The notes under the pieces: model-generated
Told to the model about the DNA's origin: nothing
Database searches by the model: none
Seen by the model: the letters and a program-made list of their open reading frames with translations, nothing else
Assembly: GCA_000004985.1 (NCBI GenBank)
Contig: GG738880.1
Strand: one strand, 5' to 3'
From: Naegleria gruberi
Taxonomy: Eukaryota
DNA length: 64,000 nucleotides
Made by a program: the position numbers and the translations under genes
Shown here: positions 4,293 to 61,406 of the stretch, piece after piece
Layout: each line of letters opens with the position of its first letter
How positions within the stretch are numbered: position 1 is the first letter of the stretch

Positions 4293-6833
4293 ATGATGAG
4301 AGAACTTGCCACTGATGATAATTCACATGCAATAGCATCAACGTTATCTTCTTCTTCTGAAAAGATGAAAAGGCCTCAACAACAACCAACCACAATCAAA
4401 ATGGTTGCTCGTACCAAGTCGGCAAGTGTGAGGGCTAAACAATTATTTGAACAAGAGCAAGCCTTAAAAAGACAGATGCAAGAACAAGAGCAGAATACTG
4501 AGGAGGATGATGGTGATGGTGATGAGAATGAGAAGGATGAATCAGATAATAGTAGTGATAATAGTAGTAGTTTGAGTAGTTATTCGATTTCTTCTGAGGG
4601 GAGTTTGGAAGAAGTTTGTGCAAAGAGTTTGATGGTTCTTAACAAACAAGAAGATAATAACATTGCAATAGTAGAAATAACGGATGATGAAAAGAGTAGT
4701 AATGGTAGTGGAAGCAGCAATGGTGGCGTTGTGGAAAATTCAAAATCCAATGAAACTACCACATCAAATTGTACTAATCAGAATTCCACTATAATTTCTG
4801 ACAATGAACAAGTATTGAGAGAACCCAAAGTCATTGAGGATGATGTATTGAACACATTGGTGGCAATGAAACATCAGCAGGATCAACCTCAGGTGCAATG
4901 CACGATAACCAATGTTGCATCATCACAACAAGATGGTTCTGTATCGTCACTGCCTGAGAAGAGGACAATCGAAAATGTTAATGAACGGATACAACCTTGT
5001 GACGATACAACAACTCGGGAGCATTCAAATATGAAAAATACTGAAATTGGAAATACTCAACACCTTAATCTTTCCTATAATCCTAATCATGCTGAGGCAA
5101 GATCAACAACTGATGTTTCAGACAATACAACACAACAATACTCCTCATCTGTTGATGGACAATTACAAATGCACACAACAGTCACTCCATCAATACATAC
5201 AACCCTGAAAAACAGTTCATTACCTCAAACACAGCAGCAGCAGCTGCAACCATCTCTTCCCCAAATTTATCATCACAAAGATGATCATCAATACTCATAT
5301 AGTACCTCAACAATTTCAACAATCGTTACTACAGCCAATGCATCTGTAACAAAGTCAGCATCTACTGCATATCATCAACACCAATACACTGTAAACTCGA
5401 GTCCATCAAACAAAACCACCTACCCAGAGTCTCACTACCTTAATTCGTATGGATCCTCTGGTGGACCAATACCAACAATAACAACTAGACATTCACCACC
5501 TCAAAGTCCTACCATTATTACTAATAGTATACCACCACAACAACCATCATCCTCATCATCACATTATAGTGGTAGTAGTAGCTCTGCATTTTCAAGTCAA
5601 GTATTCTCATCACCTCCAAGATATGATCCTTCTATTAGTAATAATACTGTCCCACCTGCATCTATTCATTCTACACCACCACCACCACCACAAAAGGTAT
5701 CTTCACATATCTATGATCATGGTGTTTATACCAAACACTATCACCAACCTCCAATGGTTTATCATTATCATCAACCTTATCTTCCTCCAATGTCTGTCCC
5801 TCCACCACCTCATCATCATGTTCCTTATATGCAACCCTATATGACCAATCCAATGATGAGCATTCCTCCACACAATCAAACATCTTCGTATAGTTCAATT
5901 CCTCAACAAGAGCAATATTATTATCAACAGCAAACAAGCAGCAGTTCTAAACCACCAATTCAAGGATCTTATCCTTCTTCTTCCACAACAACTTATGTAA
6001 ATAGCTCACCACATCATCAACCAGCTCTATCAAATCAAAGTTCAAGTTCAAAATCAACTAGTCCACAACCACTAACACCATCGCATGAAACTCTTGGAAA
6101 TTCATCCAATAATAATCAACCAAAAAACTCGTTTTTTCAAGATATTATTCAAATTCCAAAACCAATGGAATCTACCAAAAGAAAGCGAGAATATCTCAAA
6201 GATATTGTCTTGGATACTGCAAAATTAGGCCAATTAGAATATGAAACCTTTGTGGCTGAACAACAACGAAGACAGGAAGGAGCTATCACACCTAACAAGA
6301 AGAGTAAGCTTTTTAATATGGATTTTATGAATACAGTCGATCCAAATATCATGAGAGACAAGATTGAAATTACAAAAAGAAAGGAATTTTATGCTGATCC
6401 AGCTCCACCTAGAACAGAATATTTGGAAATTTTGCAAGGTGTTCGAGCCAATGCAGAATACAAGTTTGGAGATCCACTGCCTGATCATGTTGTCAAGGTA
6501 ACATTTGGTAGATATAGTGAAACTGCCAAGTCAGCTTCTGTTAGACTTTCAATTTATGGAAGAGGTCTTAGAGATGAACCAAAAAAGAGGAAGTTTATTC
6601 AAGCCATTGCAAATTTTGAGTTGGAGGTCATTAATGGAGCAGCAAAAGTCACCTTTTCAGATCTTGCAGCAAGACATGCTAGTCACAAATTTGGGAAAAT
6701 GTTGTTTTTGAGATTTGGATTATTGTGTGATGGTGTAGAAGTTTCTTCAGTTGAAACTGAAGGTTTTACCACCATCACCTTACGAGGTATTCAAAAGAGA
6801 CAACAACGACAGAATAAAGAAGTCAATCAATAA
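4293..6833 (+). CDS. Low-complexity (Q/S/T/P/H-rich) protein with a conserved non-repetitive ~230-aa C-terminal domain (unassigned; possibly a nuclear/DNA-binding factor)
   Basis: 846-aa ORF with the ATG preceded by an A-rich context. It has long S/T/Q/P tracts typical of dictyostelid nuclear proteins. The C-terminal block KRKREYLKDIVLDTAKLGQLEYETFVAEQQRRQEG..FGKMLFLRFGLLCDGVEVSSVETEGFTTITLRGIQKRQQRQ has compositionally normal sequence that I cannot assign to a family. The CudA-like idea could not be verified. Confidence 0.55.
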   Translation: MMRELATDDNSHAIASTLSSSSEKMKRPQQQPTTIKMVARTKSASVRAKQLFEQEQALKRQMQEQEQNTEEDDGDGDENEKDESDNSSDNSSSLSSYSISSEGSLEEVCAKSLMVLNKQEDNNIAIVEITDDEKSSNGSGSSNGGVVENSKSNETTTSNCTNQNSTIISDNEQVLREPKVIEDDVLNTLVAMKHQQDQPQVQCTITNVASSQQDGSVSSLPEKRTIENVNERIQPCDDTTTREHSNMKNTEIGNTQHLNLSYNPNHAEARSTTDVSDNTTQQYSSSVDGQLQMHTTVTPSIHTTLKNSSLPQTQQQQLQPSLPQIYHHKDDHQYSYSTSTISTIVTTANASVTKSASTAYHQHQYTVNSSPSNKTTYPESHYLNSYGSSGGPIPTITTRHSPPQSPTIITNSIPPQQPSSSSSHYSGSSSSAFSSQVFSSPPRYDPSISNNTVPPASIHSTPPPPPQKVSSHIYDHGVYTKHYHQPPMVYHYHQPYLPPMSVPPPPHHHVPYMQPYMTNPMMSIPPHNQTSSYSSIPQQEQYYYQQQTSSSSKPPIQGSYPSSSTTTYVNSSPHHQPALSNQSSSSKSTSPQPLTPSHETLGNSSNNNQPKNSFFQDIIQIPKPMESTKRKREYLKDIVLDTAKLGQLEYETFVAEQQRRQEGAITPNKKSKLFNMDFMNTVDPNIMRDKIEITKRKEFYADPAPPRTEYLEILQGVRANAEYKFGDPLPDHVVKVTFGRYSETAKSASVRLSIYGRGLRDEPKKRKFIQAIANFELEVINGAAKVTFSDLAARHASHKFGKMLFLRFGLLCDGVEVSSVETEGFTTITLRGIQKRQQRQNKEVNQ

Positions 6834-6874: not shown

Positions 6875-8377
6875 TTAAAAACAAAGAGCAAGTGTTCCAC
6901 TTCTCAAAGCAAAGGAGGCTTCCATATTTGAACTCTCATCTTGTGAAGGAGATTGATTGAGCAGTGATCTCTCTAATTGTTTCAATTGAGAGACAAAACC
7001 TGAATTTGGTTGAACTAAACCTCTCTTTGCCTTGACAAACTCGAGAGCAGTTTCAAAAGACCACTCATTCTTTTTCATCAGATAGGATATCAATACAGAG
7101 GCAGATCTTGATTTTCCCTTCATGCAATGAACCAACACTGACGATCCAGAACTTATTGCCTTCTCTATAAACTCGTAAGATATTTGGAAAATATCAGAAA
7201 TATTTTGATCTTCCTCATCGTAGAGGTGCAGATTCAAATACTCGAATCCCTTCTCAGGGTAAATTGGCTCCAAGGATTTCACACAAGTGACAATGTGAGT
7301 AATTCCAAGTTGCTTTAAAACTGGTTCATTGAATGCATCATCAATATCACCTAGAAAGAGATTGTCCAAAATTCTTGTGGCTGCAAACTCTGACTTGGGT
7401 GTTCCATATCTTGCAATCTGACACAATTTGTAATAATATTTCAATGCCTTTCTCGATAAAAAGTGACTAAACTTTTCAGGTGATTGCAAATAGAGAATTG
7501 CCTTCTTGTTATGCTTAGCCTTATGTAGAATATCTATGGAATCATCAGGTGGACTATTCTGTGATTCTCTCTGAGATGTCACCATTCCAAGTTCAAGCAT
7601 TCTCAAAAACTTTTTCTTTACATTGACATATCTCTGTTTGATTTCTTCCTCTTGTTGAGATTTCTTCTCCAACTTTTCAATCTTTTGCAATTTATATTCC
7701 AATCTCTCTAGAACCACATCGAGAGGAGCACACGACTTGTTTTTACATATTTCCATAGCTTTCTGATCTCTATTCTCTATCTTTTCATTATATTTACAAC
7801 AGGATGAGGAAGAGCTATCATGCTCCTCAGTATTTACAAGAACAAACTCAAAAGTGTTTGTTTCAAATAATGAATTTCCAGCCTTATGATTGAGAAGGAA
7901 AGATGGAGAAGAAATTGACCTTTTGTAATTCCTCTTGTGATTATAGAAATGCTTGTTTGATTTTGGACTTGACAGATGGTGTACTTTTCTTGAATTGACA
8001 GCTGCTGTAGGACCATTCACAGGTGAGGCAATTGATGAAGCTGAATTTTGAATCATTGAGCAAGTTGACTCTATATATTCAAGATCATGAACAGCTTCAT
8101 CCAAAGATGAATCCTTACTTAATTCATCTTCATCGCAGTCATTACATTGTTCTATTCTTTGTTGTTGTTGATCATCTTCTATGTGATTCTTGGAATTCTC
8201 CAAAACATCTTCCCATTGATCATCCGAAGGACTTGGACAAGTAGCACACTTGAATACCAAACCCTCATCATATTCCTCATCATTTTCATTGATCTTATAT
8301 TGTTTCTCCATAGTAGTGCGGTTATGATTGAGCATGAGCAAAGCTTCGTTATTAGTGGCGAGACGCAAGGCTTTCAT
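6875..8377 (-). CDS. Dual-specificity protein phosphatase (DUSP) with an acidic/Ser-rich N-terminal extension
   Basis: 500-aa ORF. The C-terminal catalytic domain carries ILDNLFLGDIDDAF and the signature VHCMKGKSRSASVLISYLM (HCxxGxxRS P-loop). The ATG at 8377 is preceded by an A9 run. Confidence 0.85.
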   Translation of the reverse strand: MKALRLATNNEALLMLNHNRTTMEKQYKINENDEEYDEGLVFKCATCPSPSDDQWEDVLENSKNHIEDDQQQQRIEQCNDCDEDELSKDSSLDEAVHDLEYIESTCSMIQNSASSIASPVNGPTAAVNSRKVHHLSSPKSNKHFYNHKRNYKRSISSPSFLLNHKAGNSLFETNTFEFVLVNTEEHDSSSSSCCKYNEKIENRDQKAMEICKNKSCAPLDVVLERLEYKLQKIEKLEKKSQQEEEIKQRYVNVKKKFLRMLELGMVTSQRESQNSPPDDSIDILHKAKHNKKAILYLQSPEKFSHFLSRKALKYYYKLCQIARYGTPKSEFAATRILDNLFLGDIDDAFNEPVLKQLGITHIVTCVKSLEPIYPEKGFEYLNLHLYDEEDQNISDIFQISYEFIEKAISSGSSVLVHCMKGKSRSASVLISYLMKKNEWSFETALEFVKAKRGLVQPNSGFVSQLKQLERSLLNQSPSQDESSNMEASFALRSGTLALCF

Positions 8378-9183: not shown

Positions 9184-10907
9184 TTAACAAGTATATGAAC
9201 CATTCCAATTCAAAAATACATAGGCACTTTCCAAAATGGATGGATTTGCTGGAGTATACATGAATACAAACTTGATTGACATTTCTGCCAATTTACCTTC
9301 TTTCAGCTTGATCATGGCTCTGGCAGTTCTTTCAGCTCTGAGATGAGATTGTTGCAAAACAGCAAGTCCATTATCGACATGTGAAATTATTGTTTCTCTA
9401 GTTGCCTTGGCTTCACATAACAAATTGAGTTGAGTTTGAATGAAATCAGGGCCCATAATTGAATCCAATCGAGTCAATGGTTGCTCTTCAAACATGGTAG
9501 AGAGTGGATCGCTCACATACTGAACAGATGTAAAATCAGAACCAACAGCAACAACACCCAATGGCTTTTCAACAAGTTGTGATGGAGTAGTGGCATCATT
9601 CACTGGATAGACATTAGTTGATGTTGAAGTAAGTGTTGTAATAATTGATGGAGTTGTTGGAGCATGCGCAATATCAGAAGAAGTCATAATCTCAACCTTA
9701 GAGAGTTTTGGTTTGGTTTCAAAGTTTTGCTCTGCTTCATTTGGAGATGATTTTCTCTTCTTTGATTCGGCTGAGGTTTTAGCTTTGGTCTTTTTACCAG
9801 ATTTACCATTTTTATCCAATGCCACTGAGGTATTATTTGATTCGATATCTTGATTTGAACCCATTGTTGATCTTCCTCTCTTCTTGGTTGATTTCATTTC
9901 CACACATTCCAAACCCAATCTTACGCATCTTTCACATGGTCGTTCGAAACCACATCTTGTATGACGTTTCTGACATTCAACACATGCTTTGCTTGCTCTC
10001 TTTCTGCCATTAGGATAGGGTGAATTCTTTTCTTGACTATTGGTTGGAGAGCTAGTTCTTGTACTGCTCTTATCTCCAGTTGGAGTTGTATTGACATTGG
10101 CATGTCCACGTTGTTTTTGGCCATTTGAACTATTGCCAGAAGAATGAGATGGTGATTTAACATCATGTTGTTGATCTTGCTCATCCTCAGTTAAATGATC
10201 AAAATCATCATCTTCTTCCTCAGCATGCTTTCTATTCGAAACAGTTCGATTCTTCCTTGATTGTCTTTGTGGAGAAGTTGCAACAATAGTTGGATTGAAA
10301 GAATGATGATCTTCAATATCGAATGAAGTTAGTGGTTCTGAATTATCCAACAAGTGAATAAAATCTTCCTCTCCTTTCAAAATTGAAACCATGCCATCCA
10401 CATGTTCAGGTGAAAAGAAGCCCTGATGTGGCTGATGTTGTTGTGATGATGATTATTATTCATGTGAGTGGTATCTACATTATAGTGGTGGAAAGTTGTT
10501 GTTGCATTATTGTTTACATGTTGTTGGAATGCTTGTTGTGGATTGGAATGTTGTTGTGGATTGTTGTGATAGAAATGTTGGTCAGGGAGATTTGAGTCGT
10601 GATAGTAAGAAGGAAGCATCATATTCTGTTTCGAATTGTGATGTTGGGAAAGGATGGCTTGATTTCTCGAATAGATATCCATCAGGGATTGTTTAGTAAC
10701 TAATCCATTCATCATCATTGATTCCATAGTGTGGTCAATTTGTGCACCACCATGTTCCAAGTAAGGATGCTGACTTGGCATTGAATAATTGTTATTATTA
10801 TTCAATGGTGGCATATAGGATGGAAATGAATTCACGAGATTACCATTGTTAATAGTACTATTATTTGTTGCTGAATTATTTGCTGCTGACATGACACGTG
10901 TAGCCAT
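9184..10907 (-). CDS. Zn(II)2Cys6 (Gal4-type) binuclear-cluster transcription factor with N/Q/H-rich N-terminus; CDS interrupted by a 1-nt frame offset between ~10377 and ~10455
   Basis: Two overlapping minus-strand ORFs are involved. ORF 10377..10907 (176 aa) starts MATRVMSAANNS and is N/Q/H-rich. ORF 9184..10401 (405 aa) contains CVECQKRHTRCGFERPCERCVRLGLEC, which fits CX2CX6CX5CX2CX6C exactly. Both frames are open over ~78 nt around a T4 run and no AT-rich intron is present there. The cause is therefore an indel (sequencing error or a real pseudogenising mutation), not splicing. Confidence 0.6.
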
Positions 10908-12582: not shown

Positions 12583-13809
12583 TTAAATCTTAATATTCTT
12601 CGAGTATTTAAGGTGAAGAATGATTGCTGAATAGACAAGTAGACTGTGAGCATACTTGATGTCTGTGTTAGTGATTTCTACATAAAGACCTCCCTTCAAT
12701 TTGTCAAATGCCAACAGTTGAGCACGTTTTCTATACTTCCTTTCTTTTTCTGTTACAAGATCAGACTTGGTTCCAACTAATACCACTTCCATTGGATTGT
12801 GTTGTTCCAAATCTTTGATGTGCCTATCCAATCTATCCAAAGTTAGTGCACTATTACTTAAATCAAACATGGCAAATGCTACATGTCCTCCTCTGTAGTA
12901 TATTGGAGATAGTGTTGCAAATCTCTCTGGACCACTGTAATCCCACAATTGCAATTCAGAGATGGAATTGGGAATGAGTTTGTATCTTTGTTTCAAGAAG
13001 GAAGCTCCAATGGTCGGCATGTCTTCCTTTTGTCTACAATTAATATTCTTAATGGCACACTCCAAAGTGGATGTCTTTCCCACATAACAGTCACCAAGCA
13101 TGATTACTTTGAAAATTTGTGTCCCCTCAGTGATCATTGGTTTGTTTGGTTTCCTTTCAATTTGAATCGATGATGCTGAACTGTTATTTTTAAAGAATGA
13201 TGACAAGTAATGTAAAACTGAACTCATAACACCACTACTATTCTTTTCATCTGATTTCTTCTCAATTTCTACTTTGGAATTATTAGAAACAACTTGATCT
13301 GAATTAATAGGACTTTCCACCTTCCCAAAGAATTCACTATAACACTCTATCATTTCCAATTCAGTTCCAAACCATTCATATTCTTTCTTACAAAAATCCA
13401 TTGTAATCGTTGCATGCAAATTTTGTGTTCTAACCTCACCCATCTTGGTTACCCCAATCAATCGAGTCGCCAATTCATAAACATGTTCCTTAAACATCAT
13501 CTTGATGAAATTTCTTCCCATTCTACTTTGAAAAAGGCTTGAAAATGCTTCATCACCACCACTATTATTCGAATCATCATCAACCAATTGCGCATAATCT
13601 TGATAACGTTTCCAAATGATCGGAAGGGAAATCTCCCTCCACGACCTACAAACTCTCACCACGGAAAAGATCAAGTGGGTCATGGATAAATGTTGGAAAA
13701 TCTCTCCAGTGAGTTCATCCGGAAGGGTGGAAAATATTTCCTGGAAGGAATACTGCTTGGTTTTAGAGTTGAAAAACAGGCGAGTGAGGGCTGAATTGTT
13801 GTTGATCAT
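12583..13809 (-). CDS. F-box protein with C-terminal Rab-like small GTPase domain carrying degenerate G3/G4 motifs
   Basis: 408-aa ORF with the ATG after an A10 run. The N-terminal F-box is LPDELTGEIFQHLSMTHLIFSVVRVCRSWREIS. The C-terminal region has G1 KVIMLGDCYVGKTS and G3 WDYSGPERF (DTAGQE with Q replaced by P). It also has G4 VGTKSDL (NKxD replaced by TKSD) and a Rab-like tail. Confidence 0.7.
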   Translation of the reverse strand: MINNNSALTRLFFNSKTKQYSFQEIFSTLPDELTGEIFQHLSMTHLIFSVVRVCRSWREISLPIIWKRYQDYAQLVDDDSNNSGGDEAFSSLFQSRMGRNFIKMMFKEHVYELATRLIGVTKMGEVRTQNLHATITMDFCKKEYEWFGTELEMIECYSEFFGKVESPINSDQVVSNNSKVEIEKKSDEKNSSGVMSSVLHYLSSFFKNNSSASSIQIERKPNKPMITEGTQIFKVIMLGDCYVGKTSTLECAIKNINCRQKEDMPTIGASFLKQRYKLIPNSISELQLWDYSGPERFATLSPIYYRGGHVAFAMFDLSNSALTLDRLDRHIKDLEQHNPMEVVLVGTKSDLVTEKERKYRKRAQLLAFDKLKGGLYVEITNTDIKYAHSLLVYSAIILHLKYSKNIKI

Positions 13810-13934: not shown

Positions 13935-14909
13935 CTAAGGAATGAGTAAAATCTTGCCAGTACTTTTACGTTGTTCCAAAAATTCATGAGCTAGAGCTCC
14001 CTCACTCAATTTGAAATTCTTCCACTCACTAATTGTAATCTTTTTTTGAGAAATCCATGAAAATAATTCAGTGGAACGTTTCAATCTCTCCTCCCTACTT
14101 GTTAGGACATTCCACAAGTCGCCACCAGTGAGTGTTTTTGAGCCATCCATTAACATTCGTGGATTGATGAGTGGAGGATCGCCACCTGCCATTCCATAGA
14201 ATACGACAGTTCCTCCAATTTTTGTAATTTTGAATGAGTCCATGATTGTTGAACCAACTGATTCGTAGACTACGTTAACACCTATTTGATTGGTCAATTG
14301 AAGTATTTGTTCAGTCCAATTATCCTTATATAGAAAAACATGATCTGCTCCAATTTGTTTTGCAATTTCTGCCTTTTCTTCACTTGAAGTCAGTCCAATA
14401 ACTGTTCCTCCCAATAATTTGATAATTTGGGTAAGCAATTGACCAACTCCACCTGCCACTGCATGCACCACTGCAACAGTTCCCTCCTTCACAACAAATG
14501 AATCTCTTGTCAAATAATGAGCTGTCAATCCTTGCAACAAGACAGCTGCTGCCATCTCTGATGAAATCTCATCTGGCAGAGGAATTGCCTTCTCCACAGT
14601 AACTTTCACCAATTGAGCATTGGCATGAGGCACATCAGCAAAACCAACTCTCATCCCCACTCGAATCAAATCAGAGTTCACCTCACTTCCAATCTCTTCT
14701 ACAATTCCAGCCCCTTCATATCCCAAAATATAGGGAGGTTCTCCCACCAAATGATAATTTCCATTCCTTCTGTAAATATCTGCAAAATTCAAGCCAATGG
14801 CCTGAGTCCTAACCAACACATCATTCTTTCCAATTTGTGGTTTTTCCAATTCTTTCATGTAGAGAACTTGAGAAGCTTCTCCGAATCGATCAAAAACAAG
14901 AGCTTGCAT
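13935..14909 (-). CDS. NADPH:quinone oxidoreductase / zeta-crystallin-like medium-chain dehydrogenase/reductase
   Basis: 324-aa ORF starting MQALVFDRFGEASQVLYMKELEKPQIGKNDVLVRTQAIGLNFADIY. It has GYEGAGIVEEIG and the nucleotide-binding VAGGVGQLLTQIIKLLGGTVIG (GxGxxG-type). This is canonical QOR/MDR architecture. Confidence 0.85.
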   Translation of the reverse strand: MQALVFDRFGEASQVLYMKELEKPQIGKNDVLVRTQAIGLNFADIYRRNGNYHLVGEPPYILGYEGAGIVEEIGSEVNSDLIRVGMRVGFADVPHANAQLVKVTVEKAIPLPDEISSEMAAAVLLQGLTAHYLTRDSFVVKEGTVAVVHAVAGGVGQLLTQIIKLLGGTVIGLTSSEEKAEIAKQIGADHVFLYKDNWTEQILQLTNQIGVNVVYESVGSTIMDSFKITKIGGTVVFYGMAGGDPPLINPRMLMDGSKTLTGGDLWNVLTSREERLKRSTELFSWISQKKITISEWKNFKLSEGALAHEFLEQRKSTGKILLIP

Positions 14910-15278: not shown

Positions 15279-16652
15279 TTATTGTTCAGTGTACTTTTTC
15301 AATTCTTGTTGGAGATTCCAATTTTCCTTTTCCAAAGCTTCAACACGTTGTCTCAATTCTTCATTTTGCTTGACCAATTCTTGTGGATTTGAAGTCTTGG
15401 CTGGCAAAACAGTCTTTGGTTGTTTGGCCTTAATTTCAACGTTTGGTTTGAAATCACGGAATTGAACATCAATTTCCTTATCTTCTGGATTCATGGAAAC
15501 CAAAGATAATTCAGCATCTTGACCAGAGAAGTAATCAGAAGCAGACAAGGCAGGAGATGGAGAAGCAGTCTTTGGATAGATATCAGATTGGAACAATTCA
15601 GACTTTCTTGGAACAGTGAATGAAATTGGAGTAATTTGATTAGCAGTCAACTTGAACAATCTGACAATTTCGTTAGAAGTAGTATCAACAGCAATCTTTG
15701 GAAGCATAGCCATACCCATTTGTGGATCAGTTGATCTAAATTCAGACAATGAGTGAATGTATGGTTCTTCATTAGTAACTTCAAAGAATCTAATGTTACC
15801 ATCACCCTTACCAGCCAAGAAGAGCAAATTAGTATCTGGATCATAGAATGGCATAATCAAACCAGAAGCCATATCAATATTAACAGTGTGCAATGGCTTT
15901 TCCAATGAACGTGGATCCCACATCATGTATTGTCTTTCAGAGGTCTTTGAGAAACCAACAGAGAACAATCTATCAGTATTGGTAATCCATTGAACACGAG
16001 ATCCCTTAGTACCACCATGACCTTCAACTTCAAGAGCAACTGCACCCTTTCTAGGATCAATAATTCTCAACTTTTTATCCTTTGAAGTGGAGGCAAACAA
16101 TGAACCATTCTTATTGAAAGAAATTGATTGAATATCTTTCCACAAATCTTTCATTTCAACTTGGCTCTTACCAGTTTCAATATCCCACAAAACAACTTTG
16201 TGATCTTGACCAGCAGTCAACAAGACATTGTTAGCAGTTGGATGGAATTCCAACAAACCAACCTTCTTCATGTGACCTTCCAATGTAACTGATGGTTCAG
16301 TAACAGTGCTTGTCAAACCATCTTGTGGAATTGACCAAATCTTGGCAGTAGCATCAACTGAACCAGTTGCCAAAATATATTGATTGAATGGATGGAACTT
16401 TAAATCCAAAACAGCACCAGTGTGGCCAGATAAAAGTGGCAAATCAGCAGCTTGTTTACCTGGAGTCTTTTGGTTCAAAACAGCAACTGAACCACCACCA
16501 CCTTGCCATGGAACAGCAACGAACAAGGCATTAGCAGCAAGCCAATTAGAATCCCAAGCACCAACATTTGGACGAATGTTTTGGAAGGCGAATTCTGCCT
16601 TGTATGGTTCACCGAAAACGTGACGATAGAGTGATGATCTGACAATGGACAT
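15279..16652 (-). CDS. corA: Coronin (actin-binding WD40 propeller with C-terminal coiled coil)
   Basis: 457-aa ORF starting MSIVRSSLYRHVFGEPYKAEF..WDSN. It contains the LLSGHTGAVLDLKFHPFN WD repeats and FSKTSERQYMMWDPRS..GLIMPFYDPDTNLLFLAGKGDGNIRFFEV. The coiled-coil tail is ELVKQNEELRQRVEALEKENWNLQQELKK. It is collinear with Dictyostelium coronin as I recall that sequence. Confidence 0.9.
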   Translation of the reverse strand: MSIVRSSLYRHVFGEPYKAEFAFQNIRPNVGAWDSNWLAANALFVAVPWQGGGGSVAVLNQKTPGKQAADLPLLSGHTGAVLDLKFHPFNQYILATGSVDATAKIWSIPQDGLTSTVTEPSVTLEGHMKKVGLLEFHPTANNVLLTAGQDHKVVLWDIETGKSQVEMKDLWKDIQSISFNKNGSLFASTSKDKKLRIIDPRKGAVALEVEGHGGTKGSRVQWITNTDRLFSVGFSKTSERQYMMWDPRSLEKPLHTVNIDMASGLIMPFYDPDTNLLFLAGKGDGNIRFFEVTNEEPYIHSLSEFRSTDPQMGMAMLPKIAVDTTSNEIVRLFKLTANQITPISFTVPRKSELFQSDIYPKTASPSPALSASDYFSGQDAELSLVSMNPEDKEIDVQFRDFKPNVEIKAKQPKTVLPAKTSNPQELVKQNEELRQRVEALEKENWNLQQELKKYTEQ

Positions 16653-17833: not shown

Positions 17834-20800
17834 ATGTCATCAACCCGATCAATTTTCCTTCAAATTTTCATCACTTCCTTCATTGTTTTGTTTTTTTCAT
17901 CATTTAATTGTTTTTTATTATTATCAGATAATGAACATGATAATAATGATGGAATAATCATACAATCGACAAGAGAATCAGGATTAAGTTTCGGATTGGT
18001 GGAAGCTAGTCTATTTTATGGAAATATTACACTTTCGAATATGAATTATTTGACCTCTCTTAGGTATAATCCAATTTATTATGATTATCCGAATGGAATT
18101 TTATATGCTTTTGGAGGAAATGATAGTAAGAAACGAGTTACAAAATCAGTGGCTGCTACTAAATCTTTAAGAGAAATTAGAAAAAGTAATGGAAACGTTT
18201 ACAATACAACTGTTCATTCAGATTTTGGAGATTTTCAACAAATTTCAACTCTCACCACTGCTATGGTCAATTATGCTGTTTATTCGATTAATAATCCAAC
18301 TGGTGGAAGATTAGTTTATTTATTTGGTGGAGATTCAACATTTGGAATTATTCAGGCCTCTAACTCAATTACTAATCTAAATTATTATTCACCAAATTTG
18401 GCAAATATTCCACCAACCTATTTTGCACACTTCATTACTGAACAATATATTTATTTAATTGGTGGTATTTCGAATGGTGGTGTTTATGATAATGGAATTT
18501 TCAGAGCTAATCTTTCAAGTTTATTAACTCAATGGGAAAGATTTGCTGATTTTCCAGTAACTATTGCAAAGGCAAATGCATTTCTATTGAATGGAGATGT
18601 TTATGTCATTGGTGGAAAGAATAATGAGACTGATGATAATCGGATTGTTTATTCTGTTCCATTGAATGATTTGGAAACACTTTCTGCTAATTTTATTGAG
18701 ATTGCTACCTTGAGCCGACCAACAGTTGGTTCTTCACTCGTATTGACAAGGGATTATGGTTTCCTATTTGGAGATGAGAATGCTGGTTCTGGAGTAGGTA
18801 TTGATACTGTCCTTGTTTTTCCCACAAGTGATGTTTCACAAATATTCGAAATTGGTATCAATGATTATTATTTCTCTTATGGTGTTCCAGTTGTGGTTTC
18901 TGGAACTATTGCTAGTTTCTTTGAGAGCACTCGTTCAGAACTTGTTGAAATTGAATTGGCATCAGATGCAGTTCCATATTGTTTCGGATTGGATGCAACG
19001 AATCCAGTTGCATGTTCGGGACATGGAAATTGTGTTGCCAATGAATACTGCAGCTGCAAGAGAGGATATTATGGCATGGATTGTTCAGTCACCTTTCTAT
19101 GCAATGGAACCATTTCCTATTCTCAGAATGTGTGCAGTGGCTACGGTTCTTGTGTCAATACGGATGAATGTTCCTGTAGAGCCAATAGAGATGGAAAGTT
19201 TTGTCAATTCAGTTATTGTAGTGGTATTCTTAATACTGATCCAACAGTTTGTAATGGAAAGGGATCTTGTGTGAATTCAGTTTGTCAGTGTGAGCAGGGA
19301 TTTTATGGAAGTGAGTGTAAGAATTATTCGTGTTACGAAATACCTTCCACTAATTCTTCAGCTGCATGTTCAGGACATGGCACTTGCAATTCACCAAATA
19401 ATTGCACTTGTTATGGACCTTATTCTGGAGACATGTGTCAGAGATTTTATTGTGGAATTTTCTCGAATGAAGATGCCGATATGGCTTGTAGTGGGAATGG
19501 AAAGTGTACTGAACCTGGCAAATGCACATGTAACAGTGGATTTTATGGAGCCAATTGTGAATCTTTTAATTGTTATGGTGAAATATTCAATAGTTCAAGA
19601 GTGTGTAATGGAAACGGTTCATGTATTTCACCAGATCACTGCACATGTCGAAATGGCTATACTGGATCAAACTGCTCAATTCCAACTTGTTTTGGAGAGA
19701 ATGGCACCTTGGCTTGTGATTCACACGGAATTTGTACAGCTCCTGATACATGTAATTGTACAGGAGGATACTATGGCAGTAGATGTTCAATGTTTACGTG
19801 TTTTGGAGTCGATTACAAGGAACCATCTGTTTGTTCTTCTGAAGGTTCTTGTGTAGCTCCAGATACTTGTGAATGTAATCAATTCTATACAGGAAATAAC
19901 TGTTCTCATTACACATGTTTTGATGTGAGAGATGACAATTCAACTTTAGTTTGTTCAGGAAATGGAAAATGTACCAAACCTAATGTTTGTTCATGTAAGG
20001 AGGGATACACTTCTGCCAATTGCTCTGCGTATTCTTGTAATGGTATTGGACATGATAATTCAAAGGTCTGTAACTCTGTTGGTGTTTGCACATCACCAAA
20101 TAATTGTACCTGTCAATCAGGTTACTATGGTTCTGATTGCCAAGTTTCAGAGTGTTTTGGAATTAGAAGTGATAATCAAAGTGTTTGTTCTGGAAGAGGT
20201 GAATGTAGTGGAAGAAATGCTTGCAACTGCTCTCAAAATTATTTAGGATCCCAATGTGAATTGACATCTTGTTTCGGCATTCTTTCGAATATATCCAATG
20301 TCTGTAATGGAAATGGAAAATGCATAGACTTTGATCAATGCTCTTGTAAGGAGGGATATTCAAGTCCCCAATGCACAGATTTCTATTGTGGAACTTTTCA
20401 TTTTAATAATTCTGCAACTTGCTCCGGAAAGGGAAGTTGTGTTTCGCCTAATTCATGCAACTGCTCAATTCCCTACTTTGGAAAGTATTGTGAAAACTTT
20501 AATTGTTTCAATATTTTGAATAACCAATCAACAGTTTGCTCTTCACATGGATCTTGCATAGCTCCCGATACTTGCAAATGTGAAGAAGGTTATTTGGGAC
20601 AAAATTGTTCCTCCTTTTCATGTTTCAACAAGACAGCTGATAGTGATGATGTTTGTTCTGGAAGAGGTTTATGTATTTCACCAAATACATGCATGTGTAC
20701 TGTGGAAGGGTTCCTTGGAATGGATTGCAACTTGTCATTGCCATTTGATATTTATTTGAATGTTTCGAATAGTATTGTTATTTATAGTGATGATAATCCA

Positions 20801-23800
20801 ATTATTGGATTCAAAGTTTTATCAAATTATAACGAATCTGATTTCTTTGGATACAGATTAACATCTTCTGGAATTGCTCCTGTCAATCAAAAGAGCAATG
20901 AATTTACTCTTGACACTAGTCAACTTTCTATTGGCCTTACCAATTATTTCCTAATTGCCAGATTGAAGAACAGCAGAACTTCCTCATCTCTAAAACTTTC
21001 TGTTGTGAAATTACAAAAATCCAGACCATCAATTGCAATTTCCAAGTTTGTATCTGTCAATGTTCCTGAATTTATTGTTTCTAGAAATGCCACAACATTT
21101 GACTTTTATTTATTGAACTTGACAATTAGTGGGCAGTCTGTTTCTTCATTATTTGGATGTAATTCTAAATGTTTAGCCGATTATTCTTATTAATATTTAC
21201 TTGACAGGTGATTCTTTGGATTCAGTTTACAATATTTCCTCTTTACAAAGTTCTTCCTATGTTCTTATCAGTGATGCAAGCAATTCTATTGGATTTAGTC
21301 CAATTCTTCAAATTCCATCCTTTACTCTAACTAAATCTCAATTGGAACAAGCAACATTTTTACAATTTGATTTTACAATTGGATCTGCAATTGGTTCCAA
21401 GAGAATTCCAATCATTTCTGCACCAAAACCAAAGAATGGTGTACTCACAGCTAGTAGCTCAATTTCAAGAGGAGTTGCCCTGACAGATGCCTACAACATT
21501 GCATCAGTTGAGTTTTCAGCTGCCACTCAATTGTTACCTCTCAGTTATGCTTATGCATTCTATGAGCCATCACAAGGCAGAGTTCTTAGAATGAGTTCAT
21601 TCTCTACTAGCTCAGTTGCCTCCATTTATTTACCATTCATTGCAAGCAGTGGAAACGTCAGTTCAGTTGACATTTATTTACTTGTTAAGGATGATTTGGA
21701 TTTTATTGATCAGTATTACATTTTCACTCTAGAAGTCACACCATATTTAGGAAATACTGATTCATTGTTCAATCAAACTCTTCCAGATTCTATCAAGACA
21801 GTTTTTGCGTATGATAATTCCATCAAACAGTCGAATTCTGTTGCAGATCAAGTTGTGAAAAACATTGAAATTCCAACAAATTCACCAGAAGCATCTCTCT
21901 CTGTCATTCAACAAATTCTTCCACAAAATGCCAATACTCCATCAGTAGTTAAGGAAGTTCAATCAAAAGTTCAATCATTCCTTGGCAGTGTCCAAACAAG
22001 TCAATCAGAGGAAATGAAAAAGTATGGTTTCGTAAAGAATCCACTCAGTAGTACTGCACTCCAATCGACTTTGAATCTCATTTCGGATTTATTCTCATCC
22101 AATAGGAAATATCCAGCTACTGGAAACACTTCAACAACAGAATCTCTAGTTTTATCATTTAGTAAGATTTTACTTTCGAATGCTTTACCGAAAGTTGTCA
22201 ATTCCAAAGATTCAGACCTACCAAATGTTAATTATCATTCCAGTGAAATGAATGTCACTGTCTCTTCACTAATTTTCGGCTCAACCACTGACAATGCAAT
22301 TCAACAAACTCTTCATGGAACAAACTCACAACTTTCATTGAATTTAAAGAAAGTTGCCAAACAATTTGGTGGAGAATCAACAAATATTGGATTATCATTG
22401 ATAACCTATTCTCAAAATGTTAAATCGGATAATTATTCTGCAAGTGTTCAATCTGGATCAACTCTGGTTGAATTTAAATATTATCAAGATGCACAAGTAG
22501 TGACATTGAAGGATTTGGATTCACCATTTACTTTGATATTCACACCACTCAATGATCAAATCAAACAAAATTTAACACTCAACACTACGAATGTTAAATG
22601 TATGTATTGGAATGAGGAAGTGTCAATGTGGAAATCAGATGGCTGTCAATATTCAAATTCCTCAAAAGATTCTATCATTTGTCAATGCACTCACACAACC
22701 AAATTCTCCACTTTTATTGAGTATACTTCATCCTATTCGAACACAACTAAATTGACCGAAACTGAACTATTGTACATTGCCAGCGTGTACAGTGCAGAGA
22801 TTAGTTTTGGAATAATGTTTGCAATCTGCTCTGCCATCATTCTCATTGTCTTGATTATTTACAGGAAGGAACAACCATTACTTTCAAGATTCTTGACTCC
22901 ATTCTTGGGAATGCTTGCTCTATTAGTGGAAAGTGTTTTAATTTCAATTGTGCAAAGATCTGTACTTGTTAGTCAACTCTTACCAAGTCAATCTAAAATG
23001 TGGGAATCTGGAGGCGAAACTGCCACTAATATTGTTGGAAATGTCACTATGATTATTGTAAACACATTGAATTTGACAGCCATCTTGGCATATGTCATCC
23101 AAGTTATTAGATTCCAGCTCCTCAAATATTTATATGATGTGATAGCTCAGAAGAATAATGGTCAATCATTCATGATGAAAGTATTGAGATTCGTCACTTC
23201 TAAAAAGCTTTTCGTCACTCTGATTGTCATTTCATTAATCTTTAATTTGTGCTATTGGTTAATGTGGGTCTTGTTAGTGAGATTGAGTGTTATTACTGCA
23301 TCTGTTTATACTGAGGCAGTTTCCATTTCGTATACAGTTATTATATTCGGATATAGTGTGATTATTAGTATTATAGCAATTGTGGATATTATTTCTAGTA
23401 CAAGACAAAAGAAGATTAAGAGGAGAAGAAGGTCAACTGTCAATTCATTGTCTTCAACTAGCTCAACAAAATCATCCCAGTCACTTATTCCATCAAAATC
23501 TACTCGAAGATTCTTTTATTTGGATGCTCCTTTATTTTTCAGATCTGAAATGTTCATGTATTTGGTCTGTTTTGCACTCATGATTATTCAACAAGTTATT
23601 GGATTAGTTTCTAATAATTTCAGATTTATTGATGCAAATGCTTATGAAATTGCAATTTATTTTGATGGAATTCGATTTGCATTTGAAGTATTGTACACTT
23701 GTGTGTATTTACTTGTATTTGGAGGTTTTGCTATTCTTGTACTAATTGTCTACAAGGTAAAAATTAACAAGAGAAGAAAACAACTGGTCAACCAAGATTT

Positions 23801-24281
23801 ACAAGATACTGAAATGATTGAAACCATCTCGGATGACAGAGGTTACGACCTCTTTGAACAATTCTGCATCCAAGAATTAGCTACAGAAAATCTCTACCTC
23901 TTGGAATTACTGAGATACAATCCAGAGTTTGTGGAAGGAAGAAGTATGAATGAATTGCCAAACTTTTTAGAAACCATTCATGATTTGTTCATCAAGACTG
24001 GAGCCGTTTCTGAAGTGAATATTCCATCAACAACTAGAAAGAGATTCCTGCAAATGATGAAACTTGTAAAGGAGGAAAAGAAAATGTCAGTTGAAAAGAT
24101 AACTCTTGAAGTTCAGCAATGTTTTGAAGAATTGCATGATCAAGTTTCTGTTAATTTGGGAGATACCTTTTCAAGATTTGTTCTAACAGAAATTTATGAG
24201 CAATACAGGAATCAACGTGCTTTGAAAATGGAATTGGTCAAACAAGCCAATATTGATATTGAATTGGAAAATTTGAAATAA
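17834..24281 (+). CDS. Giant adhesion-GPCR-like receptor: signal peptide, Kelch-like beta-propeller, ~25 tenascin-type EGF-like repeats, GPS/GAIN motif, 7TM domain and C-terminal RGS domain; 2 exons (17834..21158, 21208..24281)
   Basis: ORF 17834..21193 (1119 aa) has an N-terminal hydrophobic signal sequence. It has Kelch-like blades (YAFGGNDS, YLFGGDST, YLIGGISNGGVYDNGIFRAN, VYVIGGKNNETDDNRIVYSVPLNDLE). From ~18990 to ~20740 there are repeated CSGxGxCxxxxxCxCxxGYxGxxC EGF modules. ORF 21201..24281 (1026 aa) is in the +1 frame. The join is made by a short intron: donor GTAATT at 21159 (49 nt) or GTTTAG at 21171 (37 nt), with acceptor ..TTGACAG at 21207. Both options are in frame and give ..LFGC|DSLD... 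Exon 2 carries the GPS motif CMYWNEEVSMWKSDGCQYSNSSKDSIICQCTHTTKFS (~22591..22710). Seven hydrophobic helices follow (~22790..23760). Then comes an RGS domain DRGYDLFEQFCIQELATENLYLLELLRYNPEF..FSRFVLTEIYEQY (~23836..24220). Confidence 0.8.
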
Positions 24282-48690: not shown

Positions 48691-48740
48691 NNNNNNNNNN
48701 NNNNNNNNNNNNNNNNNNNNNNNNNNNNNNNNNNNNNNNN
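48691..48740. other. Assembly gap (50 N) between duplication units A and B
   Basis: Run of N. Confidence 1.
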
Positions 48741-50184: not shown

Positions 50185-50569
50185 NNNNNNNNNNNNNNNN
50201 NNNNNNNNNNNNNNNNNNNNNNNNNNNNNNNNNNNNNNNNNNNNNNNNNNNNNNNNNNNNNNNNNNNNNNNNNNNNNNNNNNNNNNNNNNNNNNNNNNNN
50301 NNNNNNNNNNNNNNNNNNNNNNNNNNNNNNNNNNNNNNNNNNNNNNNNNNNNNNNNNNNNNNNNNNNNNNNNNNNNNNNNNNNNNNNNNNNNNNNNNNNN
50401 NNNNNNNNNNNNNNNNNNNNNNNNNNNNNNNNNNNNNNNNNNNNNNNNNNNNNNNNNNNNNNNNNNNNNNNNNNNNNNNNNNNNNNNNNNNNNNNNNNNN
50501 NNNNNNNNNNNNNNNNNNNNNNNNNNNNNNNNNNNNNNNNNNNNNNNNNNNNNNNNNNNNNNNNNNNNN
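50185..50569. other. Assembly gap (385 N) inside HK copy B
   Basis: Run of N. Confidence 1.
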
Positions 50570-55452: not shown

Positions 55453-58400
55453 NNNNNNNNNNNNNNNNNNNNNNNNNNNNNNNNNNNNNNNNNNNNNNNN
55501 NNNNNNNNNNNNNNNNNNNNNNNNNNNNNNNNNNNNNNNNNNNNNNNNNNNNNNNNNNNNNNNNNNNNNNNNNNNNNNNNNNNNNNNNNNNNNNNNNNNN
55601 NNNNNNNNNNNNNNNNNNNNNNNNNNNNNNNNNNNNNNNNNNNNNNNNNNNNNNNNNNNNNNNNNNNNNNNNNNNNNNNNNNNNNNNNNNNNNNNNNNNN
55701 NNNNNNNNNNNNNNNNNNNNNNNNNNNNNNNNNNNNNNNNNNNNNNNNNNNNNNNNNNNNNNNNNNNNNNNNNNNNNNNNNNNNNNNNNNNNNNNNNNNN
55801 NNNNNNNNNNNNNNNNNNNNNNNNNNNNNNNNNNNNNNNNNNNNNNNNNNNNNNNNNNNNNNNNNNNNNNNNNNNNNNNNNNNNNNNNNNNNNNNNNNNN
55901 NNNNNNNNNNNNNNNNNNNNNNNNNNNNNNNNNNNNNNNNNNNNNNNNNNNNNNNNNNNNNNNNNNNNNNNNNNNNNNNNNNNNNNNNNNNNNNNNNNNN
56001 NNNNNNNNNNNNNNNNNNNNNNNNNNNNNNNNNNNNNNNNNNNNNNNNNNNNNNNNNNNNNNNNNNNNNNNNNNNNNNNNNNNNNNNNNNNNNNNNNNNN
56101 NNNNNNNNNNNNNNNNNNNNNNNNNNNNNNNNNNNNNNNNNNNNNNNNNNNNNNNNNNNNNNNNNNNNNNNNNNNNNNNNNNNNNNNNNNNNNNNNNNNN
56201 NNNNNNNNNNNNNNNNNNNNNNNNNNNNNNNNNNNNNNNNNNNNNNNNNNNNNNNNNNNNNNNNNNNNNNNNNNNNNNNNNNNNNNNNNNNNNNNNNNNN
56301 NNNNNNNNNNNNNNNNNNNNNNNNNNNNNNNNNNNNNNNNNNNNNNNNNNNNNNNNNNNNNNNNNNNNNNNNNNNNNNNNNNNNNNNNNNNNNNNNNNNN
56401 NNNNNNNNNNNNNNNNNNNNNNNNNNNNNNNNNNNNNNNNNNNNNNNNNNNNNNNNNNNNNNNNNNNNNNNNNNNNNNNNNNNNNNNNNNNNNNNNNNNN
56501 NNNNNNNNNNNNNNNNNNNNNNNNNNNNNNNNNNNNNNNNNNNNNNNNNNNNNNNNNNNNNNNNNNNNNNNNNNNNNNNNNNNNNNNNNNNNNNNNNNNN
56601 NNNNNNNNNNNNNNNNNNNNNNNNNNNNNNNNNNNNNNNNNNNNNNNNNNNNNNNNNNNNNNNNNNNNNNNNNNNNNNNNNNNNNNNNNNNNNNNNNNNN
56701 NNNNNNNNNNNNNNNNNNNNNNNNNNNNNNNNNNNNNNNNNNNNNNNNNNNNNNNNNNNNNNNNNNNNNNNNNNNNNNNNNNNNNNNNNNNNNNNNNNNN
56801 NNNNNNNNNNNNNNNNNNNNNNNNNNNNNNNNNNNNNNNNNNNNNNNNNNNNNNNNNNNNNNNNNNNNNNNNNNNNNNNNNNNNNNNNNNNNNNNNNNNN
56901 NNNNNNNNNNNNNNNNNNNNNNNNNNNNNNNNNNNNNNNNNNNNNNNNNNNNNNNNNNNNNNNNNNNNNNNNNNNNNNNNNNNNNNNNNNNNNNNNNNNN
57001 NNNNNNNNNNNNNNNNNNNNNNNNNNNNNNNNNNNNNNNNNNNNNNNNNNNNNNNNNNNNNNNNNNNNNNNNNNNNNNNNNNNNNNNNNNNNNNNNNNNN
57101 NNNNNNNNNNNNNNNNNNNNNNNNNNNNNNNNNNNNNNNNNNNNNNNNNNNNNNNNNNNNNNNNNNNNNNNNNNNNNNNNNNNNNNNNNNNNNNNNNNNN
57201 NNNNNNNNNNNNNNNNNNNNNNNNNNNNNNNNNNNNNNNNNNNNNNNNNNNNNNNNNNNNNNNNNNNNNNNNNNNNNNNNNNNNNNNNNNNNNNNNNNNN
57301 NNNNNNNNNNNNNNNNNNNNNNNNNNNNNNNNNNNNNNNNNNNNNNNNNNNNNNNNNNNNNNNNNNNNNNNNNNNNNNNNNNNNNNNNNNNNNNNNNNNN
57401 NNNNNNNNNNNNNNNNNNNNNNNNNNNNNNNNNNNNNNNNNNNNNNNNNNNNNNNNNNNNNNNNNNNNNNNNNNNNNNNNNNNNNNNNNNNNNNNNNNNN
57501 NNNNNNNNNNNNNNNNNNNNNNNNNNNNNNNNNNNNNNNNNNNNNNNNNNNNNNNNNNNNNNNNNNNNNNNNNNNNNNNNNNNNNNNNNNNNNNNNNNNN
57601 NNNNNNNNNNNNNNNNNNNNNNNNNNNNNNNNNNNNNNNNNNNNNNNNNNNNNNNNNNNNNNNNNNNNNNNNNNNNNNNNNNNNNNNNNNNNNNNNNNNN
57701 NNNNNNNNNNNNNNNNNNNNNNNNNNNNNNNNNNNNNNNNNNNNNNNNNNNNNNNNNNNNNNNNNNNNNNNNNNNNNNNNNNNNNNNNNNNNNNNNNNNN
57801 NNNNNNNNNNNNNNNNNNNNNNNNNNNNNNNNNNNNNNNNNNNNNNNNNNNNNNNNNNNNNNNNNNNNNNNNNNNNNNNNNNNNNNNNNNNNNNNNNNNN
57901 NNNNNNNNNNNNNNNNNNNNNNNNNNNNNNNNNNNNNNNNNNNNNNNNNNNNNNNNNNNNNNNNNNNNNNNNNNNNNNNNNNNNNNNNNNNNNNNNNNNN
58001 NNNNNNNNNNNNNNNNNNNNNNNNNNNNNNNNNNNNNNNNNNNNNNNNNNNNNNNNNNNNNNNNNNNNNNNNNNNNNNNNNNNNNNNNNNNNNNNNNNNN
58101 NNNNNNNNNNNNNNNNNNNNNNNNNNNNNNNNNNNNNNNNNNNNNNNNNNNNNNNNNNNNNNNNNNNNNNNNNNNNNNNNNNNNNNNNNNNNNNNNNNNN
58201 NNNNNNNNNNNNNNNNNNNNNNNNNNNNNNNNNNNNNNNNNNNNNNNNNNNNNNNNNNNNNNNNNNNNNNNNNNNNNNNNNNNNNNNNNNNNNNNNNNNN
58301 NNNNNNNNNNNNNNNNNNNNNNNNNNNNNNNNNNNNNNNNNNNNNNNNNNNNNNNNNNNNNNNNNNNNNNNNNNNNNNNNNNNNNNNNNNNNNNNNNNNN

Positions 58401-61356: not shown

Positions 61357-61406
61357 NNNNNNNNNNNNNNNNNNNNNNNNNNNNNNNNNNNNNNNNNNNN
61401 NNNNNN
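61357..61406. other. Assembly gap (50 N) between the (GGGTTT)n array and the HK HATPase exon
   Basis: Run of N. Confidence 1.

Follow-up and report, generated by a model that had tools for sequence, protein, structure and literature searches.

Within the 64,000-nucleotide stretch of Naegleria gruberi contig GG738880.1 (assembly GCA_000004985.1) that we analysed, the whole of which is referred to here as the window, the minus strand encodes at positions 12583..13809 a protein of 408 residues that joins an N-terminal F-box to a C-terminal Rab-like GTPase domain (G-domain). We are virtually certain that this gene is N. gruberi XP_002675157.1 and that it belongs to an expanded family of F-box–Rab-like proteins specific to Naegleria and its heterolobosean kin. 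The deposited model starts 42 codons downstream of the residue that we identify as the start, and the nucleotide-binding motifs depart from the consensus in a manner that is shared throughout the clade, from which we tentatively propose a GTP-binding and hydrolysis-poor receptor module of a Skp1–Cul1–F-box (SCF) ubiquitin ligase. The gene, its family, the architecture and the suggestion of an SCF function are already in print (Herman et al., 2021; BMC Biol 19:142, PMC8296547), and therefore carry little weight as a discovery; what is added here is the recognition of a clade-wide GPERF/TKxD/ITNT signature, of a bulky P-loop and of a helix conserved within the linker, together with the absence of a lipid anchor from this member and the truncation of the public gene model.

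The gene and its start codon

The features on which the gene model depends are the following:

12583..13809, minus strand: complete single-exon coding sequence of the F-box–Rab-like GTPase, equal to XP_002675157.1 / EFC42413.1 / D2VLL9_NAEGR with a corrected N-terminus
13684..13809, minus strand: codons 1-42, with the first half of the F-box, omitted from the RefSeq/GenBank model (paralogue alignment, upstream stop)
13935..14909, minus strand: open reading frame (ORF) of 324 residues resembling zinc-type alcohol dehydrogenase/quinone oxidoreductase (Pfam ADH_N and ADH_zinc_N on the environmental copy described below)

According to the ORF listing, positions 12583..13809 constitute a single uninterrupted frame from an ATG, comprising 408 codons plus the stop. 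Residues 43-408 of the product were 100% identical to the protein deposited as EFC42413.1 / XP_002675157.1 / D2VLL9_NAEGR (P0001) and annotated as 'small GTPase [Naegleria gruberi]', so that the dictyostelid origin presumed in an earlier note, which had been written from the sequence alone, was mistaken, the organism being a heterolobosean. The deposited model is 366 residues long and starts at Met43 (MTHLIFSVV...), by which start the LPxE half of the F-box is lost, and for this reason public annotation, including the precomputed Pfam annotation of that model, displays Ras/Roc only, under the name of a small GTPase.

On the evidence of the sequence comparisons, translation truly starts at Met1, and the deposited start is 42 codons too far downstream: residue 26 is where the Pfam match to the F-box sets in, the alignment of the full-length relatives with the query covers everything from residue ~24 on and shows P30, V53, and W57 to be invariant, a 99%-identical copy on an environmental contig with the same alcohol-dehydrogenase neighbour was called as 408 residues, and the manual re-annotation of Herman et al. 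(2021) begins at the very same residue. The region of residues 1-42 is conserved in paralogues from four species, and the alternative of Met43 as the authentic start was ruled out by the conservation of residues 24-42 together with the independent 408-residue gene call on the environmental contig. The earlier note had allowed that the F-box might belong to a separate upstream exon or gene, which arrangement was likewise discarded: the frame is continuous, a TAA in the same frame precedes Met1 by 7 codons, and the same-strand alcohol-dehydrogenase-like ORF upstream ends 125 bp from the XP_002675157.1 gene, so that no space is left for such an exon.

The environmental copy—positions 1324-2550 of contig L001, from the metagenome ENA ERZ929261 / ERR1078381—corresponds to a Naegleria strain and encodes a protein identical to the query at 404 of 408 residues (99%). 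The order of the alcohol-dehydrogenase neighbour is maintained there, as is the A-rich spacer, which measures 124 bp in place of 125 bp. The two copies differ by 3 synonymous and 4 non-synonymous substitutions, with an overall ratio of non-synonymous to synonymous rates (dN/dS) of 0.33, these 7 differences being too few for inference; the four replacements, at residues 123, 126, 199, and 200, are confined to the linker and leave both the F-box and the G-domain unchanged. A contig look-up by the exact query protein gave no record, the 99%-identical P0181 being the only one returned.

All the Ras-superfamily genes of N. gruberi were re-annotated by Herman et al. (2021), in whose Table S8 (Additional file 10) the identical corrected sequence of 408 residues ('MINNNSALTRLFFNSKTKQYSF...') appears under XP_002675157.1*. 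The corresponding row specifies 'Rab' and, as additional domain, 'F-box', the columns for pseudogenes and for orthologues outside the Heterolobosea being blank; moreover, that table contains the accession a single time, so that no N. fowleri gene is entered there as its one-to-one orthologue. Since Table S8 prints sequences for the corrected models only, counts of the signature motifs in it are uninformative. The corrected gene model thus exists in the supplement of that paper only, while the RefSeq/UniProt model continues to hide the F-box.

The F-box

The protein is organized in the following segments:

13606..13734, minus strand: F-box, residues 26-68 (FSTLPDELTGEIFQHLSMTHLIFSVVRVCRSWREISLPIIWKR; Pfam PF12937 and PF00646)
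13318..13542, minus strand: family-conserved helical linker, residues ~90-164, GRxFxKxLLR...ELxxLKxYFxxF (predicted helices at 96-120 and 141-164)
13192..13233, minus strand: short amphipathic helix, residues ~193-206 (GVMSSVLHYLSSFF), within a disordered stretch (alignment block)
12595..13122, minus strand: Rab-like G-domain, residues ~230-405 (Pfam Ras, PDB sequence and Foldseek matches, structure prediction)

The segment L29-P30-DELTGEIFQHLS...VCRSWREIS was present in the translation, where LPDELTGEIFQHLS...VCRSWREIS occupies residues 29-61, and so were the other motifs quoted in the earlier note, namely GDCYVGKTS, DYSGPE, and TKSD. The F-box-like profile PF12937 matched residues 26-68 with E=9e-9 and 35.4 bits (gathering cut-off, 24.3), and the F-box profile PF00646 with E=7e-6 and 26.2 bits (cut-off, 20.5); with Ras and Roc also above their cut-offs within one and the same ORF, the claim of an F-box joined to a complete G-domain was borne out, and the Pfam matches to both domains are far beyond chance. 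Residues P30, V53, and W57 were invariant across the family alignment. When the F-box segment alone was compared with the PDB, only F-box proteins were recovered—FBXO44, FBXL17, FBXO6, FBH1, and Skp2, all of them in register—with marginal values (E=0.017-0.66) of the kind to be expected for a query of some 45 residues. The AlphaFold2 (AF2) model placed helices at residues 31-39, 43-52, and 55-76 of this region, with a predicted local distance difference test (pLDDT) score of ~70-82, although the structural search with the N-terminal half modelled alone, described below, did not corroborate a three-helix F-box fold. As is expected of a substrate-receptor architecture, a separate domain of the interaction type lies C-terminal to the F-box, namely the Rab-like G-domain of residues 230-405. 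A search of the literature on Skp1 in Naegleria yielded nothing specific.

The Rab-like G-domain

The Ras-profile check that the earlier note had called for, a failure of which would have spoken against a GTPase, gave a match of PF00071 to residues 234-367 with E=6e-20, and Roc PF08477 matched with E=2e-18, both above the gathering cut-offs. The best 60 sequence matches in the PDB were all Rab/Ypt proteins, with Ypt51 in the first place (5e-18) and Rab5A/B/C, Rab22, Rab31, Rab11, Rab25, Rab2, Rab8, and Rab1 ranking after it, while in the Foldseek comparison against the PDB the first 40 ranks were all occupied by Rabs, at target-normalised TM-scores of 0.69-0.79, the first Ran appearing at rank 41. 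The predicted secondary structure at residues 230-405 is that of a complete G-fold with six strands and five helices, in a model that was obtained from the 12-sequence family alignment and had a mean pLDDT of 64 and a predicted TM-score (pTM) of 0.69.

Among the RabF motifs, which were reportedly defined by Pereira-Leal and Seabra, the query contains IGASF, LQLWD, RFATLS (a partial match), and YYRGG; in addition, the hydrophobic triad of the Rab effector surface is kept as Phe271, Trp289, and Tyr304, of which W289 is invariant and Y304 nearly invariant in the family. A C-terminal cysteine motif for prenylation (CC, CXC, or CaaX) is absent, the protein ending in ...LHLKYSKNIKI (AIILHLKYSKNIKI); with no C-terminal cysteine the protein would not be prenylated, for which reason 'Rab-like' is its best name. 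Of the three Naegleria clades of this kind, Herman et al. (2021) mention a CaaX motif for just one.

Nucleotide-binding motifs and their conservation

The motif table was built from an alignment of the family to which human Rab5A, Rac1, and H-Ras had been added as references. The motifs that define the clade are located as follows:

13069..13095, minus strand: G1 (P-loop), G239-DCYVGKTS-247, which fits GxxxxGK[ST]
12919..12945, minus strand: G3/switch II, W289-DYSGPERF-297, with DxxG intact and the catalytic Gln replaced by Pro294
12760..12771, minus strand: G4, T347-KSD-350, the TKxD variant of NKxD (motif table)
12664..12678, minus strand: G5, E378-ITNT-382 in place of ETSAK (motif table)

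This table confirmed the intact P-loop and the replaced catalytic glutamine of the earlier note. In G1, Cys241 and Tyr242 stand at the positions equivalent to G12 and G13 of Ras, and across the clade those two positions are bulky and often aromatic (CY, SF, YA, WG, YG), a second feature expected to impair hydrolysis, on which the earlier note is silent; G239 and G244 are invariant, and K245, T246, and S247 nearly so. G2 is intact, with the switch I Thr266 present. Regarding G3, where WDYSGPE corresponds to residues 289-295, the form WDxxGPERF is common to the query, P0032, P0035/P0182, P0036/P0183 (N. fowleri), P0039/P0188, P0100, and XP_002670359, the sequence being GPGRF in the N. lovaniensis protein P0060, Leu or Asn being found in a few members, and the motif being degenerate in two (P0159 and P0095). 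G4 is TKxD in most members of the clade, as it is in human Rac1, and NKTD in P0032, with D350, the Asp that specifies guanine, invariant. The native G4 of Rac1 is TKLD, and the exchange of Asn for Thr is therefore no evidence of a lost nucleotide binding, so that the disabling effect attributed to it in the earlier note must be withdrawn: TKxD is the norm of the clade. In G5 the pattern E/D-[IVT]-T-N-[TSK] takes the place of ETSAK throughout the clade.

The signature of GPERF, TKxD, and ITNT with aromatic P-loop residues occurs across proteins of N. gruberi, N. fowleri, and N. lovaniensis as well as those of environmental relatives; as judged from the alignment, the Gln-to-Pro exchange, TKxD, and the G5 ITNT are a conserved signature of the clade and not a peculiarity of a single gene, and the recurrence of the deviant motifs across species points to a selected state rather than drift. 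The Willaertia F-box–Rab-like protein P0143 (KAL9657252.1) has a canonical WDTAGQERF and a G5 of the SSK type, which suggests that the Gln-to-Pro/ITNT state arose inside the Naegleria lineage.

In the alignment of the whole protein, no or almost no variation was seen at G239, G244, K245, T246, S247, I267, G268, W289, D290, Y304, and D350, so that residues of the nucleotide pocket and of the Rab surface dominate the best-conserved positions. Because Lys245/Thr246, Thr266, Asp290/Gly293, and Lys348/Asp350 are intact and among the most conserved, the pocket appears to be under constraint, and the G-domain has very probably kept the ability to bind guanine nucleotide and Mg2+. Substitutions of Gln61 and Gly12 in Ras lower hydrolysis, and the atypical GTPases Rnd, RhoH, and RhoBTB are GTPase-deficient; as the positions equivalent to Gln61 and to Gly12/13 are here altered in a conserved way, to Pro and to Cys/Tyr, the intrinsic hydrolysis of GTP is probably poor. 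The description of the GTPase in the earlier note as locked in, or insensitive to, the nucleotide cycle is overstated and amounts to a prediction: the lost cis-Gln and the bulky residues at positions 12/13 argue for poor hydrolysis, yet cycling by means of a Gln supplied in trans by TBC proteins would be possible.

The linker

F-box and G-domain are separated by 160 residues that are specific to the family. Their helical portion, in which Y157 and F161 are invariant and E150 and F158 nearly invariant, had no Pfam match, and the N-terminal half, when modelled alone, yielded a low-confidence structure (pLDDT 58) for which the fold search returned no significant match, FBXO42 appearing only at E=6. 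A low-complexity, Ser/Asn-rich stretch at residues 165-228, predicted by AF2 to be disordered over about 163-221, precedes the G-domain and contains the short amphipathic helix, whose pattern across the clade is G-[LFI]-[FL]-x-x-h-h-x-[FY]-h-[GSA]-S-h-F and which AF2 models at residues 194-203 with a low pLDDT. This helix, at residues 193-206, might be an autoinhibitory or a membrane-binding element, and the linker as a whole could keep the two domains rigidly apart, as linker helices do in other F-box proteins, or could itself be autoinhibitory or membrane-binding.

Relatives within and outside the Heterolobosea

An exhaustive HMMER search of 1.84 billion representative proteins recovered full-length relatives that were 22-36% identical to the query over the F-box, linker, and G-domain, the best of them at ~33-36%. 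All these relatives came from N. gruberi (P0032, P0035, P0095), N. fowleri (P0036), N. lovaniensis (P0067, P0060), Willaertia magna (P0143), or environmental contigs (P0039, P0063, P0159, P0100); among the 12 aligned members, Pfam detected the F-box PF00646 in 11 and Ras in all 12. Another Willaertia magna protein, P0189 (KAL9643663.1), consists of 271 residues with an F-box only, and is a relative of the N-terminal extension. In a profile search with the family alignment against a collection of 5.8 billion proteins, nothing was retrieved beyond P0001, two proteins of Willaertia, and Rab5-like proteins of fungi. A tandem array of paralogues was considered and rejected, since tblastn of the protein against the window returned itself alone.

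The same pairing of an F-box with a Ras-family domain was found outside the Heterolobosea in Paratrimastix pyriformis, in Protostelium nocturnum, and in the metagenomic protein P0160. The Paratrimastix protein (P0059, KAJ4456396.1) has 732 residues with three Ras-family domains and F-box motifs before at least two of these, Pfam marking 2 F-box and 3 Ras stretches. In both the Protostelium transcript P0121 and P0160 the F-box accompanies a near-canonical Rab-like domain. The pairing is therefore unusual in model organisms and recurrent among protists; the statement of the earlier note that it is uncommon holds across eukaryotes at large and fails for Naegleria, where the F-box is the commonest extra domain on Ras-superfamily GTPases; the pairing recurs, moreover, in Paratrimastix, Protostelium, the Euglenozoa, and effectors of Legionella.

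Proposed mechanism and alternative explanations

With respect to mechanism, the reading that we put forward, albeit tentatively, is that of a soluble, GTP-binding, and hydrolysis-poor receptor module of an SCF ligase. The N-terminal F-box would dock the protein on Skp1–Cul1–Rbx1, and the C-terminal Rab-like domain would serve as the partner-recognition module in the position where ordinary F-box proteins carry WD40 or leucine-rich repeats (LRR), its contact with the partner being made through the preserved Rab effector surface, that is, the switch I Thr266 plus the triad Phe271/Trp289/Tyr304. The G-domain would bind guanine nucleotide and Mg2+, hydrolyse GTP poorly, and be mostly in the GTP form, as are the atypical GTPases of the Rnd, RhoH, and RhoBTB type, in which case the activity would be set by the abundance or turnover of the protein and not by a fast GTP/GDP cycle. 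The bound partners would then be ubiquitinated by the SCF, and the protein, in lacking a prenyl anchor, would be either soluble or brought to membranes by other means. The role of substrate recognition in an SCF that the earlier note had assigned was a reasonable inference, the same having been published by Herman et al. (2021), and it stands as a prediction. The signature thus offers a concrete hypothesis, namely GTP-binding and hydrolysis-poor recognition modules on SCF ligases. The identity of the gene and this mechanism, when blended into one explanation, make up the account that we find the best, and toward which we lean only somewhat.

Several considerations weigh against that account. 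Because TBC-type Rab GTPase-activating proteins contribute a catalytic Gln in trans, the loss of the cis-Gln need not abolish hydrolysis driven by such proteins; likewise, the TNT in place of SAK in G5 could alter the affinity or the specificity for the nucleotide. The comparison of the query with the L001 copy agrees with a constraint on both domains, yet involves just 7 substitutions, which number is too low for a test of selection, and the AF2 model, derived from a shallow alignment of 12 sequences, reaches no more than moderate confidence (pLDDT 64). Furthermore, Herman et al. (2021) consider that a specific functional prediction for these clades is not possible, and in the literature we found no later experimental work on the gene or on the family.

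Under a rather unlikely alternative, the F-box would couple a constitutively 'on' Rab-like GTPase to its own SCF-mediated autoubiquitination, so that the level of the protein replaced hydrolysis as the off-switch. F-box proteins are often unstable through autoubiquitination, and Pro294 along with the bulky P-loop would suit a GTPase governed by abundance; the same idea was put forward for the F-box of the rapidly proteolysed TbFRP (PMC3593210). Such self-turnover is nevertheless compatible with the receptor model, and the conserved effector triad would be expected under both. That the domain had lost nucleotide binding altogether, to become a rigid protein-binding scaffold, seems very unlikely: three of the five G-motifs are indeed off consensus, with P for Q, T for N, and TNT for SAK, but the GK[T], the switch I Thr, the Asp and Gly of DxxG, and the Lys and Asp of [NT]KxD are intact and figure among the best-conserved columns, TKxD is native to Rac1, and G5, which contacts the guanine mainly via backbone atoms, varies among bona fide GTPases. 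A shade less probable again is a role with Skp1 alone, in which the F-box would recruit Skp1 as a structural partner in Rab-like membrane traffic outside any SCF. The precedent is yeast Rcy1, an F-box protein of endosome–Golgi recycling whose partner is Skp1 in the absence of the cullin core and which acts together with Ypt31/32, and the G-domain of the query is clearly of the Rab type; the lack of a prenylation motif or of any other membrane anchor, however, makes a classical membrane role of the Rab kind doubtful.

We also considered whether the gene might be a decaying, (nearly) functionless copy in a family of fast turnover, whose motifs had changed through relaxed constraint. Birth-and-death dynamics with disrupted members of the clades have been described (Herman et al., 2021), the query has no one-to-one orthologue in N. 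fowleri and its nearest relatives are only ~33-36% identical, and G3 is degenerate in some members (P0159 and P0095). We nonetheless regard decay as extremely unlikely, in that the frame of 408 codons is intact in two strains with no replacements in the F-box or the G-domain, XP_002675157.1 is not flagged as a pseudogene in the supplementary table of Herman et al. (2021), and the deviant motifs are common to several species. A highly improbable speculation, finally, is that the clade supplies SCF-coupled soluble 'Rab decoys' that, kept constitutively in a GTP-like state, would trap Rab-targeting proteins for disposal by the ubiquitin–proteasome system, examples of such targets being effectors of Legionella or other intracellular bacteria, or of giant viruses, that prey on Naegleria. 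The logic would be analogous to that of the integrated decoys of plant nucleotide-binding leucine-rich-repeat (NLR) proteins in innate immunity, and the idea is compatible with the birth-and-death evolution, the lineage-specific expansion, the retention of the effector surface, a signature that would impair hydrolysis, the missing membrane anchor, and the guess of Herman et al. (2021) about an environmental interface, to which we return below.

Surroundings of the gene

The window has a GC content of ~35%, which was also weighed in rejecting a dictyostelid origin, and large ORFs of 176-1119 residues flank the gene at high density, both on one side (4293-6833, plus strand; 6875-8377, minus strand; 9184-10907, minus strand) and on the other (15279-16652, minus strand; 17834-21193, plus strand; 21201-24281, plus strand). 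Runs of N, corresponding to assembly gaps, are located in the last quarter of the window (48691-48740, 50185-50569, 55453-60125, 61357-61406, and 63383-63432), around which the GC fraction falls to 0.22-0.31.

Comparison with known systems

The query is a listed member of the three Naegleria-specific Rab-like clades with F-box extensions described by Herman et al. (2021), with which it has in common a conserved N-terminal extension and the absence of close relatives outside the Heterolobosea. In that work, the F-box is reported as the commonest extra domain on the Ras-superfamily GTPases of Naegleria, a 'GTPase-dependent ubiquitination' is suggested for these clades (Additional file 4), and a role 'at the organism–environment interface' is guessed for them; in the portions of the paper and its supplement that were consulted, we found no discussion of the state of the G-motifs.

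TbFRP, a FYVE–F-box–Ras-like GTPase of the Euglenozoa (Exp Parasitol 2013, PMC3593210), is similar in that the F-box is N-terminal to a Rab-related G-domain in a discoban protein. TbFRP differs, however, in having an N-terminal FYVE domain that binds phosphatidylinositol 3-phosphate (PI3P), for which the query gave no match at E<=1, and in a G-domain reported to be nearest to Rab18/Ypt6, that of the query being nearest to Rabs of the Rab5/Ypt51 type. Since no FYVE domain is present, membership of the query in the TbFRP family was ruled out; the authors of that study, for their part, had found no orthologue in N. gruberi (PMC3593210).

To the canonical endosomal Rabs Ypt51/Rab5, Rab22, and Rab11 the query is likened by the best matches in sequence and fold, by IGxxF, LQLWD, RF..., and YYRG, and by the effector triad, and is set apart by the missing prenylation cysteines, the Gln-to-Pro exchange, TNT instead of SAK, and an F-box extension of 230 residues. 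The Paratrimastix protein KAJ4456396.1, the Protostelium transcript, and the Rab-like F-box effectors of Legionella present the same pairing of two domains—an F-box being carried by some of the Legionella effectors (bioRxiv 10.1101/350777)—but these fusions keep canonical or near-canonical G3, G4, and G5 motifs (e.g., WDTAGSERF, NKxD, ETSA[KR]), and that of Paratrimastix is composed of three tandem units.

Rnd and RhoH carry GTP constitutively, and it is through their expression and degradation that they are regulated. With them the query shares substitutions at the equivalents of Ras 12 and 61 (here Cys241/Tyr242 and Pro294), whereas they belong to the Rho family, are lipid-anchored, and lack an F-box, and the GTPase deficiency of the query is a predicted one. 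RhoBTB, a parallel named by Herman et al. (2021), likewise combines an atypical, hydrolysis-deficient Ras-superfamily domain with an adaptor domain of cullin-RING ligases; its adaptor, however, is a BTB domain that serves Cul3, and its G-domain is of the Rho type and N-terminal, unlike the F-box/Skp1/Cul1 arrangement and the C-terminal Rab-type domain of the query, so that no homology beyond the G-fold is implied. Fusions of GTPases with cullin adaptors—the F-box here, the BTB domain in RhoBTB—seem to have arisen repeatedly, and would as such constitute a small natural experiment in which the state of a G-protein is coupled to ubiquitination.

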